Part shown: in pieces, positions 2,051-21,132 of the stretch
Layout of the letters: every line of letters starts with the position of its first letter
How positions within the stretch are numbered: position 1 is the first letter of the stretch
DNA from: a virus
Lineage: Duplodnaviria > Heunggongvirae > Uroviricota > Caudoviricetes
IMG/VR virus record: IMGVR_UViG_2563366943_000015
DNA: 21,542 nt
Strand: one strand, 5' to 3'
Translations under genes and position numbers: made by a program
Notes under the pieces: model-generated
What the model was told of the DNA's origin: nothing
The model's database searches: none
The model's input: the letters and a program-made list of their open reading frames with translations, nothing else

Positions 2051-4021
2051 TCATGCCGCGATGTCCGCGTTGTTCACTTCCACCTTCACACTGTCAATCA
2101 GCAGCGTATATGTCGCCGCCTTTGATATGCCTGTCAGTTGCAGTTTGTCCGCCGCCCCTGATGCCGGAGATTTCACCAGTGTGAACGGCGTCCCCCGTTT
2201 CTCATCCAGTACCGGCGTCACCTGAATGCTGTTGTTTCCGGCAAACTCAAAAGCCAGTGTGTGCCATCCGTTATCAAAGACCCCGAACGTATCCAGCTTC
2301 GCATTCGGCTTCTTGTGGTGCATCGCGTTCAGGTTCGTCGCATCCGTCTGCAGGAAGAAGGACATCAGCATGTCGTTGCCTTCCTCTGCCAGCGTCACTC
2401 CCTCCGGCAGGGACGACAACTGCCAGTAAATGCCCAGGGCAAACTGATTCGGCACCAGTGAACCCGGCAACTTAAACCGTACGCTCACACGTCCCCCCTT
2501 CTTCAGTAACTCCACTCCCTGTCCGGCTGCATCATGCTCCAGAAACCAGATGTGGTTTTCCGGTTTATTCAGTTGCAGGGCCTTACCTCCCGTAGCCCCC
2601 GCATCACTGACCACCGCTTCAGCAATGTTTTTGTTAACATTGTCTCCGCTCGCCGGTTTGTGATAATAGCGCCAGCCCTGTGATGCCAGGTCTTCGCCGG
2701 ACGCCAGCAGACTCATCAGGGTTCGGTTACTGACCGGGGCTTCCGGCTCTCTCTCCGTACCTTCACCGGAAGGTCCGGTGGGCTTCACCGTATCAGGCTG
2801 TTTTCCGGTAATGAATTCAGCGTTTCTCCCGGCATGCACAAGAATCGCCGTTGCCAGACGGTCGGAAATAATCCCACGACGTGCCCATGATCCAAAATGC
2901 GTTTTACGGTCGGCCGTCGTCCAGGTTTTGGCGTCCGTTCGACCACCGGCTCCGTAATACCCAATATCCGCAACATCCGGATCTTCTGACGGCTCGTTGG
3001 TACCCACATTTCGCCCGTTTTCATCCGTCATAAACGGCACAAAGAAGATTTTTTTTGCGGATTTCGTCTTGTATGCACCATACACCGCATCGTATTGCGA
3101 AGAATAAGTCTGCTTCCAGTAGTAGGTCGTGTCGCCACAAATCCAGGGAACCGATGACGGAGAGCCCCCGAGACACTGACCTCCGAATTCCGACAGGTCA
3201 GAACGATATTTTTCCACCATGGAATCAAACAGCCCCGGCTGAGTGGCGTATGCACCCTGTTTCAAATCAAACTCGCCCTGCATCCAGACCACTGCAAGCA
3301 GAATATTTTTAGGGTTGGCCTTCAGTGCGGCCTGAGTACGGGCAAGCAGGTCCTTGTACAGTGGCTTATCTACACCCCAGCGTGCCGAGGTCTCGCTTGC
3401 GCCGGTGGATTCGCTGAAGGTACCTTCATCGCCCGCCAAAAATGCAGAACCACCACGGCAGCAAGGAACCAGAAGAATACCGGCATTCGCCGGAATAAAC
3501 GGCAACAATTTCTTCGCGATATGTAATCCCTGCCCCACGCATCCATACTGAGCTGCGCTGGCTTTCGGGTGTGAAAACTTACTCAAATCCTGAACATCAT
3601 GCAGGCAGTGGTCCGCAGGAATAATGTCATTGTAGTTACAGGACGCACCACCCGGCGTGACAGTGCTGCGACGCGCCAGCTGTTTAATACGCGGGTCCGG
3701 ACGGTCATATGTCTCCGGCAGCGGAAGCCCTTCACCATACGCCATACCGTTTGACTGCCCGGCCAGGGCAACAACAAAGTAATACTCCGGGTTGCTGGTG
3801 GTGCTGATAACTGCGCCTTCTCCATCCGACGGCTTCACCACCACAGGTGTGGTGACATTACCTTCTGCGACAATCGCCTGAATAAGTGCTGCGCCATCAT
3901 CCGTATACGAAGAAAACGGCCCGCCGTATGGTTGCCATCCTTCACGAATTTTTTGAGCAAGCGCATCCGCAAGGTCTGACGGCGATGCCGCCCTGACCAC
4001 GTCATAGTGTTTAAATGCCAT
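2051..4021 (-). CDS. Prophage NanS-p-like 9-O-acetyl sialic acid esterase (DUF1737 N-terminus plus DUF303/SGNH-type esterase), 656 aa
   Basis: GQSN block (FVVALAGQSNGMAYGE) typical of the sialate O-acetylesterase family; size and position downstream of Q as in Stx-phage nanS-p; RBS GGGAGG 4 nt before the ATG at 4021. Confidence 0.75.
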   Translation of the reverse strand: MAFKHYDVVRAASPSDLADALAQKIREGWQPYGGPFSSYTDDGAALIQAIVAEGNVTTPVVVKPSDGEGAVISTTSNPEYYFVVALAGQSNGMAYGEGLPLPETYDRPDPRIKQLARRSTVTPGGASCNYNDIIPADHCLHDVQDLSKFSHPKASAAQYGCVGQGLHIAKKLLPFIPANAGILLVPCCRGGSAFLAGDEGTFSESTGASETSARWGVDKPLYKDLLARTQAALKANPKNILLAVVWMQGEFDLKQGAYATQPGLFDSMVEKYRSDLSEFGGQCLGGSPSSVPWICGDTTYYWKQTYSSQYDAVYGAYKTKSAKKIFFVPFMTDENGRNVGTNEPSEDPDVADIGYYGAGGRTDAKTWTTADRKTHFGSWARRGIISDRLATAILVHAGRNAEFITGKQPDTVKPTGPSGEGTEREPEAPVSNRTLMSLLASGEDLASQGWRYYHKPASGDNVNKNIAEAVVSDAGATGGKALQLNKPENHIWFLEHDAAGQGVELLKKGGRVSVRFKLPGSLVPNQFALGIYWQLSSLPEGVTLAEEGNDMLMSFFLQTDATNLNAMHHKKPNAKLDTFGVFDNGWHTLAFEFAGNNSIQVTPVLDEKRGTPFTLVKSPASGAADKLQLTGISKAATYTLLIDSVKVEVNNADIAA

Positions 4022-4204
4022 GAATCCTCCCGGCCGGGATAATATTGTGAGTAAAATAAGGAGCGGGCTGAAGTCCGGAAGTTACAGGACAATGGCAGAA
4101 GAGAGACGACAGCCCGCAATTCGAAAAAGACCGCGCAGTTGCGCAGCCTTATGAATTCTGGTTAAAATCCATTCGATTATAAAAATGTATATCTCATGCT
4201 GTTT

Positions 4205-4228
4205 CCCGAACCCACTCGGGCTTTTTTT
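4205..4228 (+). terminator. Hairpin plus T7 run, plus-strand intrinsic terminator-like
   Basis: cccga-acccac-tcggg followed by ttttttt. No obvious plus-strand gene upstream. Confidence 0.3.
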
Positions 4229-4582
4229 GCCCACAAGAAAGCCCCTCCGGAGAGGGGCTAAAGCCGCGTATCTGTATCATCATGCACATGGTGCCGGGTG
4301 CCTCCCGGTAAGTTCAGCCCGGTGCCACTAAACCCGCGTCATTCTCGTTTTGATAATCAGAGATTATACCGTCACCAGTCGCCCCTCCGCTCAGGGGGAT
4401 TCACCATGCCAGTTTCTTTTAACAAACTCCCCGCAAACCAGACAACAGTCAACCGCCTGAATTGTGAGGTATTTAAAAATTTCTCCAGATAACTGATACC
4501 CGGCTAACAGTCTGGCGTTTTCTTTTTCAGCAACGGGAAAGCAACAACCACCACACCCACCAGCCGCCAATTTACCACAAAT

Positions 4583-4605
4583 AAAAAAGCCTTCAGGACT
4601 GAAGG
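4583..4605 (-). terminator. Intrinsic terminator just after the small ORF
   Basis: Minus strand: ccttc-agtcct-gaagg then CTTTTTTAT; the ORF stop (4595..4593) lies within the stem. Confidence 0.45.
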
Positions 4606-4790
4606 TGTCTGTAACAACCAAACTGATAGTCTGCCAGACCCGCCATAACAAGCTGGGTCAGTATTAACTGGCAGCGTTCGCGTGAAAGGTAAGTATTCTG
4701 TGCAATCTCCCCGACTGTCGCCGGTTCGGTGACGCTTAACTCATTAAACACCACTCTGGCGGTTTCGGTCATATCCTGCTGTTTTAGCAT
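4593..4790 (-). CDS. Small hypothetical protein, about 65 aa (MLKQQDMTETARVVFNELSV...)
   Basis: The longest track ORF (to 4913) starts with GTG inside the upstream terminator, so the internal ATG at 4790 is the more likely start; followed by its own terminator. May not be a real gene. Confidence 0.3.
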   Translation of the reverse strand: MLKQQDMTETARVVFNELSVTEPATVGEIAQNTYLSRERCQLILTQLVMAGLADYQFGCYRHLQS

Positions 4791-4913
4791 GTCTTTTTCC
4801 CTTTTTCGGTTAACGTGACACACCAATAACTCTTGTAGAAAAAGCCAGCAAGCTGAAAGAACGGTATTAATAACCACCAGCGAATTTATTGCGCTACTGT
4901 ATATCGCGGACAC

Positions 4914-4934
4914 AAAAAAACCACCTTCCGGTGG
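4914..4934 (-). terminator. tR-prime-like intrinsic terminator downstream of the Q-like gene
   Basis: Minus strand: ccacc-ggaa-ggtgg followed by TTTTTTT (plus-strand A run 4914..4920). Confidence 0.55.
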
Positions 4935-4936
4935 CT

Positions 4937-5014
4937 TCCTTGTGCGAAAAAAACTTGCGTTTCGCCTCGCGATACAGCTTTGCGAAGCTTATACGGATTG
5001 AAGCAGTTTATTGA
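4937..5014 (-). promoter_or_regulatory. Candidate late promoter / Q-utilisation region (pR-prime-like)
   Basis: Lies between the Q-like stop and the terminator; minus strand has TTGCAA and TTGATC -35-like hexamers and TTCAAT/TATAAG -10-like hexamers. Exact elements not resolved. Confidence 0.3.
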
Positions 5015-5566
5015 TCAGTTTGCAACATTTTTCTCTGTAACAAAAGCCATGCGCATGGGGGCATATAACATAAATTCAGATACCCCCAACCATTGATCAA
5101 TTCGGCGCCTGCACGTAACCAACGACCAATCAGGATGATCTGCATTTAACCTTTCGGCCATTTTCAGTTTGCTCATTCCCCGTCCTTCGTACCTTTGCCG
5201 GAGAACATTGATTAGCCCGGGATATTCCCCAAGCACCTCACTGATAACGCGATCAATAATCAACGCCTCTGTGTCTGTACAATGTGACAACCAGCTCTTC
5301 TGCTTTCCTCTTGTCATATCCCGAAAAAATGCCTCAAGTTCCGGTTTTTCCAGCCCGGATTTCTTCATTCTGCGTAAAACCTCATTAACTGCTGTTTTCG
5401 TCAGCTTTTTCGAAACCAGTAACCGGTTAAACATATTTCCCGTCTTACCGCCGCCAATATACGACCAGCGCCCCCACATGCGCAGTTTTCCCTGAATCCA
5501 GACACTTTCCAGCGTGGTGAGACGAAGGTGTTCCCCGCTTTTGCCTGTATTTGTTGGGTAAATCAT
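5015..5566 (-). CDS. Putative late antiterminator Q-like protein, 183 aa
   Basis: ATG at 5566..5564 with RBS AGGAAGG; sits immediately upstream of a promoter-plus-terminator unit and the late genes, as Q does. Call is mainly positional; the sequence match to Q families is from memory only. Confidence 0.5.
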   Translation of the reverse strand: MIYPTNTGKSGEHLRLTTLESVWIQGKLRMWGRWSYIGGGKTGNMFNRLLVSKKLTKTAVNEVLRRMKKSGLEKPELEAFFRDMTRGKQKSWLSHCTDTEALIIDRVISEVLGEYPGLINVLRQRYEGRGMSKLKMAERLNADHPDWSLVTCRRRIDQWLGVSEFMLYAPMRMAFVTEKNVAN

Positions 5567-7011: not shown

Positions 7012-7167
7012 TTACTCCTCAGGTTCGTAAGCTGTGAAGACAGCGACCTCCGTTTGGCCGGTTCGGATTCGTACCTCGCAGAGGTCTTTCCTCGTTACCA
7101 GTGCCGTCACTATGACGGTTAAACAGATGACGATCAGGGCGATTAGCATCGCCTTTTGCTGCTTCAT
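7012..7167 (-). CDS. hok: Hok-family type I toxin (HokD/RelF-like), 51 aa
   Basis: MKQQKAMLIALIVICLTVIVTALVTRKDLCEVRIRTGQTEVAVFTAYEPEE matches Hok/Gef family from memory; RBS AAGGAG 9 nt upstream; an in-frame upstream ATG at 7224 gives a 19-codon mok-like extension. Confidence 0.85.
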   Translation of the reverse strand: MKQQKAMLIALIVICLTVIVTALVTRKDLCEVRIRTGQTEVAVFTAYEPEE

Positions 7168-7727
7168 AGCCTGCTTCTCCTTGCCTTTCGGCACGTAAGA
7201 GGCTAACCTACGTGTGTAGAGCATAGATATGGCCTCAGATTAATGTTAAGCGTCTTGCCGGACGCGTAATGTTAACTGGGGCTTTTCTCTATCTGCCTTT
7301 TGGTGTTCATGCCTGAGACAGATAGCCTCAAGCACCCGCAGTTATTCTACTTAACTAAGATTTCCCCGCAAACCGTTTTTGTCCGGCACAGTAAATATCC
7401 AACTAAACCAATGGCGTTCGCTGTATTTACCGCCAGTATTCAATGCACATGACCGCCATGAACACCCCTAAAAAAAGGGCATTTATATGTCCAAACATTA
7501 ATATCAAAACATCAATTTTTTCCATATACCTTGCTGTGAAGATGATGGGCATACATGATGCGAACAACCAGAACGCAACAAACAAAAACTGCAATGCGTT
7601 TTTCATTATTCCCCCCTACAATCAATGTGCAATAACATTTAAACACACCTCAATTTGGCCGGACATATAAATATCTAAACCAGAAAAAATCACTTACATA
7701 GCGTTACAAACTCTTTAGTCTAAATAT

Positions 7728-14401: not shown

Positions 14402-14627
14402 TGCTATGTGTAGTCTTTGGCGGCATCAGTTCTACTCCGTGGCTGCCCTGCCGCCCCTTTTTAAAGTGAATTTTGTGATGCAGTGAATGCGGCTAAGCGC
14501 ACGCGGCACAGTTAAAAGCATCAGTGTTATGGGTGGATTATCCGGCGTTAATTGTTAACTGGTTAACGTCACCTGGAGGCACCAGGCACCGCATCGACAA
14601 AATTCATTTGTAAAAATGGAGATAATT

Positions 14628-18990: not shown

Positions 18991-19197
18991 ATGACAAAAA
19001 TTATGAGATATGACGATGTTAAACCATGTCCGTTTTGTGGTTGTCCATCTGTTACGGTGAAAGCAATTTCAGGATATTACCGGGCAAAATGCAACGGATG
19101 CGAATCCCGAACTGGCTATGGTGGAAGTGAAAAAGAAGCACTCGAAAGATGGAATAAACGAACTACTGGAAATAATAATGGAGGTGTTCATGTATAA
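18991..19197 (+). CDS. ralR: Restriction-alleviation protein RalR/Lar, 68 aa
   Basis: MTKIMRYDDVKPCPFCGCPSVTVKAISGYYRAKCNGCESRTGYGGSEKEALERWNKR matches Rac RalR from memory. Confidence 0.75.
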   Translation: MTKIMRYDDVKPCPFCGCPSVTVKAISGYYRAKCNGCESRTGYGGSEKEALERWNKRTTGNNNGGVHV

Positions 19198-19378
19198 AAT
19201 TACTGCCACTATTGAAAAGGAAGGTGGCACTCCTACTAACTGGACAAGATATTCAAAATCTAAATTAACGAAATCAGAATGCGAAAAAATGCTCTCAGAA
19301 AAAAAAGAAGCAGGCGTTTCCAGAGAGCAGAAAGTAAAGCTGATAAATTTTAATTGCGAGAAACTTCTGTCCTCGTGA
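19190..19378 (+). CDS. ydaC: YdaC-like small protein, 62 aa
   Basis: MYKITATIEKEGG...; RBS GGAGG upstream; overlaps the ralR 3' end. Confidence 0.55.
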   Translation: MYKITATIEKEGGTPTNWTRYSKSKLTKSECEKMLSEKKEAGVSREQKVKLINFNCEKLLSS

Positions 19379-19478: not shown

Positions 19479-19766
19479 ATGGCAATGAATCTTGTGACAC
19501 TCAAAACGTGGGGAAAACTCAGATATCCGGATAACCCACCATCAATATCAACGCTGAGACGATGGGCAAGGAATGGAAACATTTATCCTGCACCTGAACT
19601 ACACGGGAGGAGTTACAGGGTGGTTCCGGAGGCTTTCTATATCAACCCAAATAAGGTTGATACCGATATAACACACCATCAGCCTAATGGGCGACAAGGG
19701 AGAGACAGTCCGTTACTGGAGAAGTTAAAACATGCAGCGGAAAAAATACGATCCCAATTTGCCTAA
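19479..19766 (+). CDS. xis: Excisionase-like protein, 95 aa
   Basis: Immediately upstream of int and overlapping it by 35 nt; RBS AAGAGG. Confidence 0.65.
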   Translation: MAMNLVTLKTWGKLRYPDNPPSISTLRRWARNGNIYPAPELHGRSYRVVPEAFYINPNKVDTDITHHQPNGRQGRDSPLLEKLKHAAEKIRSQFA

Positions 19767-20808
19767 AAACTTAACATATCGAAGGAGGGACAAAGCATAT
19801 TACTGGCGCAACCCTCTGACGAAAGAAGAATTTACACTAGGTAAAATTTCAAGAAGAGATGCAGTAGCGCAGGCAATTGAAGCAAATCATTATATATACA
19901 AAAACTACTCTCCTGCTGCCTTAATTGAAAAGCTTAAAGGGTTCGACTCATTTACTATGGCTGACTGGATTGAACGTTACAAAACGATTCTTATAAGGAG
20001 AAAAGTGTCCAGAAATACTTATAAAATTCGGGTAAATCAACTGGAGACAATAAAAGAAAAATTGGGGGAAATTTTACTGACAGAAATAACCACTCGCCAT
20101 ATTGCCGAGTTTCTTGATTTGTGGATTGAAGGAGGGAAAAACACAATGGCAGGATCAATGCGTTCTGTGTTGTCTGATATGTTTCGTGAGGCCATTGTTG
20201 ATGGACGTATATCTCAAAATCCAGTAACGCCAACAAGAGCACCGAAAATAGTAGTTACAAGAGAACGACTGAAACTAAAGACATACAACTGCATCAGGGA
20301 GGCAGCAGATCAACTTCCGGCATGGTTCCCATTAGCTATGGATTTAGCCCTTGTAACAGGACAACGTCGCGAAGACATAACGAATATGCGCTTTAGTGAT
20401 ATTTATGATGATCGTCTCCACATCAGGCAAATTAAGACAGGAATGATGATTGCTATCCCCCTGTCACTCAGCCTTCCTGTCGCTGGTCTACGGCTTGGTA
20501 CAGTAGTTGAACAGTGCCGCCTGGTAAGCCGGGGAGATTATCTAATCAGTGCCGGGATTAGAAAAAACAGCCCTGACGGCAGCATTCACCCGGATGGCCT
20601 GACAAAAAAATTTGTCGCAGCCAGAAAATTAACAGGTATCCAGTTCAGTGAAAACCCACCAACTTTTCACGAGATCAGAAGTCTGGCTGGACGATTGTAC
20701 AAAGAAACATGTGGAGAAGAATTTGCTCAGCGTCTACTTGGTCACACATCGGAGAAGACAACAAAAATGTATCTTGATGAGAGAGAAAAAACGTACTTAC
20801 TACTCTGA
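19732..20808 (+). CDS. int: Tyrosine integrase, lambda Int family, 358 aa
   Basis: N-terminus [25 protein letters not shown] and C-terminal catalytic region [12 protein letters not shown]...[16 protein letters not shown] parallel lambda Int. Confidence 0.9.
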
Positions 20809-20939
20809 TTTTAACGTAAATGGATTGTTAAATGTATTTTGGTTGTGATATAACCAAAAAAGACCGGAATACAGAAATTCGAGTAAATTTCGGGGAATTT
20901 CGGGAAGACGTTTGCAACTGATTGATTTTAAATACAATT

Positions 20940-21042
20940 AAAAAAAGACCGAATACGATTCCTGTATTCGGTCCAGGGAAATGGCTCTTGGGAGAGAGCC
21001 GTGCGCTAAAAGTTGGCATTAATGCAGGCTTAGTTGCCTTGC
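20940..21042 (-). ncRNA. sdsR: sRNA SdsR (RyeB)
   Basis: Minus strand reads GCAAGGCAACTAAGCCTGCATTAATGCCAAC...CCCTGGACCGAATACAGGAATCGTATTCGGTCTTTTTTT, matching the SdsR sequence as I remember it, including the terminator hairpin plus T7. Confidence 0.7.
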
Positions 21043-21132
21043 CCTTTAAGAATAGATGACGACGCCAGGTTTTCCAGTTTGCGTGCAAAATGGTCAATAA
21101 AAAGCGCGGTGGTCATCAGCTTAAATGTTAAA

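Follow-up and report, generated by a model that had tools for sequence, protein, structure and literature searches.

Among the small regulatory RNAs (sRNAs) described from the late regions of lambdoid prophages, the anti-sRNAs are Hfq-bound RNAs of 51–60 nt that combine a conserved 3′ part of ~35–42 nt with a variable 5′ part of 14–18 nt (Tree et al., 2014, PMC4104026). The same study already described a convergent pair of sRNAs at the “moron” site and mapped the 5′ end of the 933W-type anti-sRNA (CGAUUAU...) by RNA ligase-mediated rapid amplification of cDNA ends (RLM-RACE). EcOnc27, which has been equated with STnc100 and sRNA103, is likewise Hfq-bound (PMC12711010) and runs at ~235/247 nt, beyond the 206-nt Rfam model (Tree et al., 2014 supplement, PMC4104026), and several STnc100 copies are transcribed in EDL933 (PMC5331693). 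An expressed, Hfq-associated RNA of ~200–250 nt is established for the Sakai and EDL933 copies only (PMC4104026; PMC5331693; PMC12711010). Recently, STnc100 was reported to be related to PasD and to lie directly upstream of a sialate esterase gene (Zhu, Shabalina and Storz, 2026, bioRxiv 10.64898/2026.05.13.724894). A further short RNA, StxS, arises from the late promoter and terminator pR′–tR′ (Sy, Lan and Tree, 2020, PMC7547250). Here, we analyze the interval between the late antiterminator gene Q and the nanS-p-type esterase gene (positions 4022–5014) of a lambdoid prophage of Escherichia coli, contained in a stretch of 21,542 nt (IMG/VR record IMGVR_UViG_2563366943_000015) which is referred to as the window.

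All positions are window coordinates, and the interval is read from 5014 down to 4022 on the minus strand, which carries the late genes. In this direction it comprises a DUF1133-type Q gene, pR′/tR′, a gene of 65 aa with its terminator, a scar with a DUF3927 remnant, an STnc100 gene, a convergent anti-sRNA gene on the plus strand, a terminator hairpin and finally nanS-p. The complete interval occurs with 100% identity in NZ_OZ547117 and in strain MSB1_4I. The sequence that separates stx2B from L0105 (nanS-p) in 933W and other Shiga toxin 2 (Stx2) phages aligns end to end with positions 4022–4467 at ~80% identity. Near-invariant in this comparison are the nanS-p leader, a hairpin at 4127–4150 and the promoter, CGAUUAU start and 3′ core of the anti-sRNA, and the differences from the 933W spacer are concentrated in the first ~16 nt of this small RNA. 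We conclude that the interval is very probably the “moron” region of a lambdoid late operon in a minimal, cargo-free state, equipped with the late promoter and terminator, a small conserved gene and two convergent sRNA genes of known types. An architecture of this sort was published in 2014, and for its main RNA Rfam has a curated family; the arrangement is ordinary and already known in kind.

An earlier, sequence-only reading had framed the interval as the Q-to-nanS segment, had seen neither tRNA-like sequence nor a Stx-like open reading frame (ORF) in it, and had proposed a cargo-exchange site that is either empty or occupied by a small regulatory RNA. The framing is borne out by the flanking genes, Q being of the DUF1133/phrog_753 type at 5566–5015 and the esterase of the nanS-p type at 4021–2051. 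Both absences were confirmed as well: ARAGORN predicted no tRNA or tmRNA gene in the whole window, and tblastn with Stx2A and Stx2B of 933W returned no match in the window, related loci being detected at 55–100% identity. The two halves of the proposal turned out to hold side by side, with a slot of ~85 bp next to STnc100 and the anti-sRNA. The interval had also been equated with the stx position of Shiga-toxin phages, which is correct for ~4468–4552 only and not for the whole 1 kb, the 65-aa ORF being a conserved Q-proximal gene.

The slot is delimited by comparison with 96 related loci, obtained by scanning IMG/VR for the terminator sequence of the anti-sRNA. Two modules are constant in these relatives, a left one with the nanS-p leader, the anti-sRNA and STnc100 (window 4000–~4468) and a right one with the 65-aa gene and its leader (window ~4553–4891). 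Between them, the relatives carry 0.6–2.9 kb where the window has ~85 bp (4468–4552). When the window is compared to the loci by BLAST, the left-module junction lies at 4467–4479 and reaches 4562–4569 in loci with a full DUF3927 gene beside a TerB-like gene; the right-module junction lies at 4553–4556, giving overall slot junctions at 4467–4479 and 4553–4569. The resulting gap between STnc100 and the 65-aa gene measures 153 bp in the window and belongs to the shortest class, seen in 5 of the 47 fetched sequences measured. RefSeq places a 24-aa “DUF3927” ORF across this gap (4578–4504, minus strand), a chimeric 3′ remnant that matches the Pfam profile DUF3927 only at positions 37–53 of 53; full copies of 50 aa are present in loci L072 and L093. 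As the ORF retains only the last third of the profile and spans the junction, the minus-strand stretch 4468–4578 is read as a deletion scar, and the slot can be regarded as truly empty.

The cargo seen in relatives is diverse and includes a second STnc100 copy, DUF3927 together with a TerB-like gene, an ORF of 237 aa, an ORF of 352 aa, stx2AB and probable tRNA genes. The 352-aa ORF contains the DPPY motif of DNA methyltransferases, which was found by reading, with no family search made. In three loci (L031, L077 and L081), stx2AB is located between the 65-aa gene and STnc100. A putative tRNA-like sequence follows tR′ in L016, the loci not having been scanned with ARAGORN. In ten prophages, the slot holds a diverged second copy of STnc100 in tandem (73–74% identity; L007, L019, L023, L028, L035, L045, L053, L057, L058, and L093), located ~515–719 nt from the anti-sRNA terminator. 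The tandem resembles a duplication, from which sRNA diversity could arise.

The STnc100 gene of the window itself occupies 4229–4438 on the minus strand and matches Rfam family RF02076 over model positions 1–206 of 206 with 147.6 bits, far above the gathering score of 47 (E = 3e-33). It ends in a terminator with its stem at 4259–4240, including an 8-bp, GC-rich minus-strand stem within 4241–4257, and a U-rich tail reaching to ~4232. The fold is supported by covariation: RNAalifold of 19 distinct homologues yields 33 consensus pairs, six of which show compensatory double changes, and none of the 10 variable pairs is broken. The gene lies between cargo and esterase gene, as it does in 933W and the 96 IMG/VR loci. 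In sequence it is ~78–80% identical to the region downstream of stx2B in 933W, and the northern probe for EcOnc27 falls within the 933W homologue of the STnc100 match (PMC4104026 supplement).

Convergent to STnc100 (4438–4229) and antisense to pR′ transcription lies a plus-strand anti-sRNA gene of the AsxR/AgvB/EcOnc03 type at 4174–4228, just upstream of nanS-p, which starts at 4021. Its terminator consists of a stem at 4205–4220 followed by seven T residues at 4222–4228, and the 3′ ends of the two sRNAs are ~4 nt apart; in prophage Sp5 of Sakai, the Hfq peaks of EcOnc27 and AsxR are also separated by 4 nt (1268490 / 1268494; Tree et al., 2014, PMC4104026). The promoter, read from the sequence at 4139–4168, combines a −35 element TTGCGC (4139–4144), an 18-nt spacer and a −10 element TAAAAT (4163–4168). 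Positions 4125–4164 are 92–100% conserved over 45 distinct loci and are conserved in 933W, too. By homology of the promoter and the +1 position to those of the RLM-RACE-mapped AsxR, a length of 53–55 nt is predicted. In a permissive Rfam scan, AsxR (RF02703) matches 4174–4226 on the plus strand over the full model (1–53) with 54.9 bits (gathering score 63; E = 1.7e-7), and AgvB (RF02702) scores 35.4 bits (gathering score 56). The ACACAACAAU motif of AgvB, a CA-rich mimic of GcvB, is absent from the 5′ region.

The similarity to the described anti-sRNAs is highest in the 3′ part. Overall, 46 of 53 nt are identical to AsxR of 933W, and a 33-nt core beginning with UAUCUCAUGC, which includes the terminator stem-loop, is identical to EcOnc03 at 32 and to AsxR at 30 positions. 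The 5′ 16 nt are distinct, reproducing the division into a conserved 3′ and a variable 5′ part. Since the 5′ region CGAUUAUAAAAAUGUA matches none of the published sequences of AgvB, AsxR and EcOnc03 (PMC4104026 supplement), it represents an unnamed fourth variant class; no homologue of this class in Sakai is listed in Table S2 of Tree et al. (2014). Among ~95 fetched sequences, the EcOnc03-type 5′ region is found in 38, the type of the window in 36 (counting minor variants: 34 IMG/VR loci, the window and L001) and the AsxR type in 21, including 933W (L002). Among 5426 complete E. coli genomes, 177 carry the class of the window; the ten listed as examples comprise nine human isolates and one avian isolate (avian pathogenic E. 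coli). No annotated feature underlies the listed genome matches, since the Rfam thresholds miss the variant and genome annotations therefore omit it. The copy in the window adds no more than one member to a known family, and its 5′ variant is the only unnamed element of the interval.

The variable 5′ region bears on the possible target. Four of its first 18 nt deviate from AsxR, and a change of U8 to A interrupts the 11-bp duplex between AsxR and FnrS. Against the FnrS terminator, the 5′ region reaches a duplex energy of −8.5 kcal/mol in AsxR, −6.3 in AgvB, −5.8 in EcOnc03 and −5.0 in the window. Only this terminator-restricted comparison is informative, as RNAduplex with the first 31 nt and the whole of FnrS does not separate the true AsxR from shuffles. 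Pairing with the FnrS terminator is at the level of the family members that do not act on FnrS, which tentatively suggests that the target probably differs from that of AsxR. No excess complementarity of the anti-sRNA was detected to STnc100, the nanS-p leader or the short pR′ RNA. A count of ARN motifs was left unused, the published criterion not having been reproduced.

The terminators of both sRNAs belong to a larger series of hairpins. Between 3900 and 5700, seven terminator-like sites are found, as compared to 1.9 ± 1.4 in shuffled sequences, and all seven map to five hairpins, four of which fall within 4022–5014. Intrinsic-terminator-like hairpins are present four times on the late strand (4934–4914, 4605–4583, 4259–4232, and 4150–4122) and once on the opposite strand. 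Another hairpin of the scan, at 4485–4503, was discarded as no better than shuffles (z = −0.4). The sequence-only reading had pointed to several such hairpins, and those it had singled out can now be assigned: the tR′-like terminator at 4914–4934 is present on the minus strand (z = −4.7), the small ORF at 4593–4790 has a true coding signature and ends in the terminator proposed for it at 4583–4605, the plus-strand hairpin with T7 at 4205–4228 terminates the anti-sRNA, the GC-rich stem at 4241–4257 terminates STnc100, and the one at 4136–4147 forms the center of a 10-bp minus-strand hairpin at 4127–4150. What had to be given up was the impression that the segment holds nothing recognizable by a sensitive search, Rfam placing STnc100 well above and an AsxR-like RNA just below threshold. 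The hairpins can claim no novelty either, being conserved and previously described late-region parts of this phage family (PMC4104026).

Several observations weigh against the interpretation as a cargo-free “moron” region with two sRNA genes. The anti-sRNA stays under both Rfam gathering scores, and a rare G-to-T change at 4204, common to only two complete genomes and 4 of the ~95 fetched sequences (three IMG/VR loci and L001), removes the closing G-C pair of its terminator. A consensus scan detected no sigma-70 promoter for either STnc100 or the 65-aa gene, each pR′ hexamer agrees with the consensus at only 4/6 positions, and the expression of this prophage is extrapolated from relatives. Some of these points would suit a view in which the hairpins act purely in cis, as stacked terminators or insulators of the late leader, and both sRNA-like genes are decayed relics devoid of trans function. 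The G-to-T change cuts the anti-sRNA terminator stem to 5 bp and leaves a fold no better than shuffles (z = −0.5), and the minimum free energy of whole STnc100 is equally unremarkable (z = −0.8); the sub-threshold scores and the undetected STnc100 promoter point the same way. Against decay, STnc100 matches its full covariance model at 147.6 bits, hardly any bases of the module are more conserved than the promoter and 3′ core of the anti-sRNA, and the recurrence of one 5′ class in 36 of ~95 fetched sequences and 177 complete genomes argues for selection. Given that the homologues are moreover abundant Hfq-bound RNAs (PMC4104026), we consider decay very unlikely.

The undetected promoter also raises the question of how STnc100 is produced, as the RNA may be released by processing from the 3′ portion of a transcript that begins upstream. 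It would then correspond to the 3′ untranslated region or RNase E-processed 3′ end of the preceding gene, i.e., the 65-aa gene here and stx2AB in Stx phages. Upstream of 4438 no sigma-70 consensus is found, homology to Stx2 phages stops ~30 nt upstream of the Rfam start (at 4467) and leaves little room for a shared promoter, and EcOnc27 with its ~235/247 nt exceeds the 206-nt model. These findings are countered by the strong terminator which separates the 65-aa gene from STnc100, by a conserved CACAAT/TTGAC block just upstream of STnc100 (4447–4466), by −10-like hexamers at equivalent positions (TTAAAT in the window, TGTAAT in 933W) and by the expression of STnc100 in lysogens beside different cargos (PMC5331693), so that an origin as a 3′ end is unlikely, yet clearly less so than decay. 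The hand-read promoter candidates TTAAAT (4476–4471) and CACAAT (4466–4461) stay unsupported. Protein-coding cargo that has escaped recognition, such as a plus-strand ORF of 64 aa at 4298–4492, is scarcely credible. This ORF does match phrog_27294 and phrog_24488 (E = 5e-14 and 1e-4), and hypothetical proteins are annotated over this DNA in some phage records (e.g., H27), but premature stops occur in 41 of 45 distinct homologues and frame-shifting indels in 21 of 44, variable sites show no codon phase (40/45/40), no Pfam match is found for it, and this stretch also conforms to an RNA covariance model and shows compensatory changes. The plus-strand ORFs over STnc100 with PHROG matches were accordingly dismissed on their stops, frameshifts and missing codon phase in homologues, and the other small ORFs of the interval match neither Pfam nor PHROG.

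At its upstream end, the interval is headed by a late unit of lambdoid layout, in which a candidate promoter at the Q terminus is closely followed by an intrinsic terminator. The Q-like antiterminator of 183 aa (5015–5566, minus strand) matches Pfam DUF1133 (E = 1.3e-105), Phage_antitermQ (31.4 bits; cut-off 26) and phrog_753, “anti-termination protein Q-like” (E = 3.4e-76). The candidate pR′ was read from the minus strand at 4997–5025, with a −35 element TTGCAA (5025–5020) that overlaps the last Q codons, a 17-nt spacer and a −10 element TTCAAT (5002–4997). The consensus scan missed it (8/12 matches), so that its assignment relies on an alignment of the sequences that follow eight distinct Q genes of the DUF1133 type (proteins 77–100% identical), across which the hexamers (TTGC.. 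/ TT[CG]AAT) are kept. Across these eight variants, the 31 nt at the start of the late transcript, TAAGCTTCGCAAAGCTGTATCGCGAGGCGAA (4992–4962, minus strand), are nearly unchanged and their flanks diverge; this stretch is probably a Q-loading or pause region. The terminator tR′ follows at 4914–4941 on the minus strand, with the stem CCACC-GGAA-GGTGG at 4934–4921 and U7 at 4920–4914; an upstream A-rich run could lengthen the stem, and the 101-nt context folds at −39.3 kcal/mol. Its stem-loop reads GCCACC-GGAA-GGTGG in the window and CCCGC-TTTTT-GCGGG or CCCGCC-ATTGA-GCGGG in other DUF1133-Q loci, which makes three hairpins among the eight variants. Such a swap of hairpins at a conserved position, where the function is kept and the sequence replaced, provides good comparative evidence that 4914–4934 is tR′. 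The predicted pR′–tR′ RNA would comprise ~78 nt and end in a strong hairpin with U7; it shows no sequence similarity to StxS or the pR′–tR′ region of 933W.

The 65-aa gene (4593–4790, minus strand, ATG at 4790) is a genuine coding sequence. Of the 43 variable sites in its frame, 24 fall on codon position 3, and synonymous to non-synonymous changes amount to 28:21, as opposed to 7:42 and 12:37 in the other two frames. The protein belongs to phrog_331 (E = 5.5e-37) and has 334 close homologues in prophages of Escherichia, Salmonella, Klebsiella, and Citrobacter. It often carries the NCBI name “TrmB family transcriptional regulator,” a name from annotation only, its score of 18 bits against Pfam PF01978 (TrmB) being under the threshold of 25.6; no match to NCBIfam was obtained. 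AlphaFold2 gives a weak, all-helical model of four helices (pLDDT 68), and Foldseek returned nothing from the PDB at E ≤ 0.001. In 25 of 32 loci, with both Q types, the gene follows Q at a distance of 214–248 nt, and in some Stx2 phages (L031, L077, and L081) it lies upstream of stx2A. Due to this steady distance from Q, whatever the Q type, and its position upstream of stx2A, it is considered the conserved first gene of the late region and not exchangeable cargo. Its terminator (CCUUCAGUCCUGAAGG followed by U6; 4583–4605, minus strand), the stem of which contains the stop codon, belongs to the conserved right module (4553–4891). The preceding 4791–4913 on the minus strand is a non-coding leader, in which variable sites are unbiased by codon phase (17/16/19) and synonymous and non-synonymous changes are equally balanced in the three frames. 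A longer form of 106 aa from an in-frame GTG at 4913 was rejected as an over-called ORF despite its higher phrog_331 score.

At the opposite end, the late strand carries an extra terminator-like hairpin (4122–4150) with a 10-bp stem at 4127–4150 followed by a U-run. Two G-U pairs strongly favor its formation on the minus strand (−15.6 kcal/mol, z = −3.2) over that on the plus strand (−8.2 kcal/mol), and 933W has G-C where the hairpin of the window has G-U. It overlaps the −35 element of the anti-sRNA promoter, and positions 4135–4144 within it are the most conserved stretch of the module (identity 1.00). The nanS-p 5′ leader extends over 4022–4121 on the minus strand and includes the ribosome-binding site GGGAGGA at 4031–4025. 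Over the 80 nt at 4022–4101 it shares 100% identity with 933W, in contrast to the mere 60% between the NanS proteins; two readings of the leader are an anchor for recombination and a conserved cis-regulatory element. An 8-bp long-range stem (GCGGGCUG/CAGCCCGC) was also observed in these 80 nt. The esterase gene itself (2051–4021, minus strand; 656 aa) contains the Pfam domains DUF1737, SASA, and DUF6645 and is the counterpart of L0105 in 933W. Directly after its stop codon (2051), a strong hairpin, GCCGCCAGCG...CGCTGGCGGC at 2008–2050, has A7 and T7 at its two sides and reads as an intrinsic terminator of the plus strand (117-nt context −28.8 kcal/mol, z = −2.2). PasA/PasC-type sRNAs have been placed between esterase and holin genes (Zhu et al., 2026, bioRxiv 10.64898/2026.05.13.724894), and a plus-strand RNA ending at 2008–2050 could be of this type.

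Built on the order, strands, hairpins and conserved promoters of these elements, a working model can be borrowed from characterized relatives (Tree et al., 2014; Sy et al., 2020). In the lysogen, pR′ would fire constitutively and transcription would halt at tR′, releasing the ~78-nt RNA as a by-product. STnc100 and the anti-sRNA would be made as separate Hfq-binding RNAs, each with its own terminator, the anti-sRNA from its own recognizable promoter and STnc100 perhaps by processing of an upstream transcript. The four late-strand terminators would keep nanS-p and the lysis genes silent. Upon induction, Q-modified RNA polymerase would pass all four of them into nanS-p and the lysis genes and thereby meet the anti-sRNA promoter head-on. 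The anti-sRNA may sponge or destabilize a host sRNA via its variable 5′ region, the target probably not being FnrS. Taking this further, it is possible, though somewhat doubtful, that the plus-strand 55-nt RNA constitutes a functional fourth anti-sRNA class, found in the non-Stx prophages of ~3% of complete E. coli genomes, whose CGAUUAUAAAAAUGUA seed antagonizes a core sRNA other than FnrS or GcvB and whose expression is coupled inversely to lytic transcription by the late-strand hairpin over its −35 element.

Beyond annotation, these findings are of little importance. They show a non-toxigenic nanS-p prophage whose stx position is a clean, empty landing pad flanked by the modules of Stx2 phages, and recombination acting on such a substrate could bring in or remove stx or other cargo. 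The analysis also flags a fairly common, unannotated variant of the AsxR/AgvB family. Outside the interval, SraC/RyeA (20936–21080, plus strand) and SdsR/RyeB (20940–21039, minus strand) are detected far above the Rfam threshold. They adjoin a 358-aa ORF at 19732–20808 which is taken as an integrase from its position, with no family search made; if so, the prophage is integrated beside the chromosomal ryeA/ryeB locus. Further known prophage RNAs above the gathering scores are RalA, the antitoxin of RalR (19196–19374, minus strand), Sok (7162–7337, minus strand), and DicF (14405–14456, plus strand), and hokD is annotated near Sok in L001. In MSB1_4I, the otherwise identical prophage carries an IS2 in its early region (L001 10556–11784), which is absent at ~8525 of the window; the window thus more likely stems from NZ_OZ547117, the other genome with 100% identity, or from a relative.

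Among the described systems, StxS and the 6S RNA of lambda are short products of constitutive pR′ transcription that ends at tR′. The same logic applies here, with a candidate promoter overlapping the end of Q and an intrinsic terminator ~75 nt downstream that would yield a short RNA, yet Q is of the DUF1133 type and not of the 933W type. The anti-sRNA shares with AsxR (EcOnc02), AgvB (EcOnc01), and EcOnc03 of O157 the orientation antisense to the late operon, the position directly upstream of nanS-p, the convergent sRNA of ~200 nt, the promoter, the predicted length of 53–55 nt and the confinement of variation mostly to the first ~16 nt; it differs in residing in a non-Stx prophage, in its own 5′ region and in its sub-threshold score. 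STnc100 resembles EcOnc27 of Sakai, sRNA103 of EDL933 and PasD of enteropathogenic E. coli in its full-model match, its terminator, its position between slot and nanS-p and its compensatory changes, whereas it is only ~78–80% identical to the Stx2-phage copy and its central loops are variable. Finally, in contrast to Stx phages, the window contains no ileZ, argN, or argO tRNA genes and no ORFs for Stx A or B, and has in their place ~85 bp with a truncated DUF3927 ORF; the flanks, however, are homologous to those of the Stx-phage “moron” site, and in relatives that share them the site is occupied by stx2AB, probable tRNA genes, a methylase gene, a TerB-like gene or an extra STnc100.

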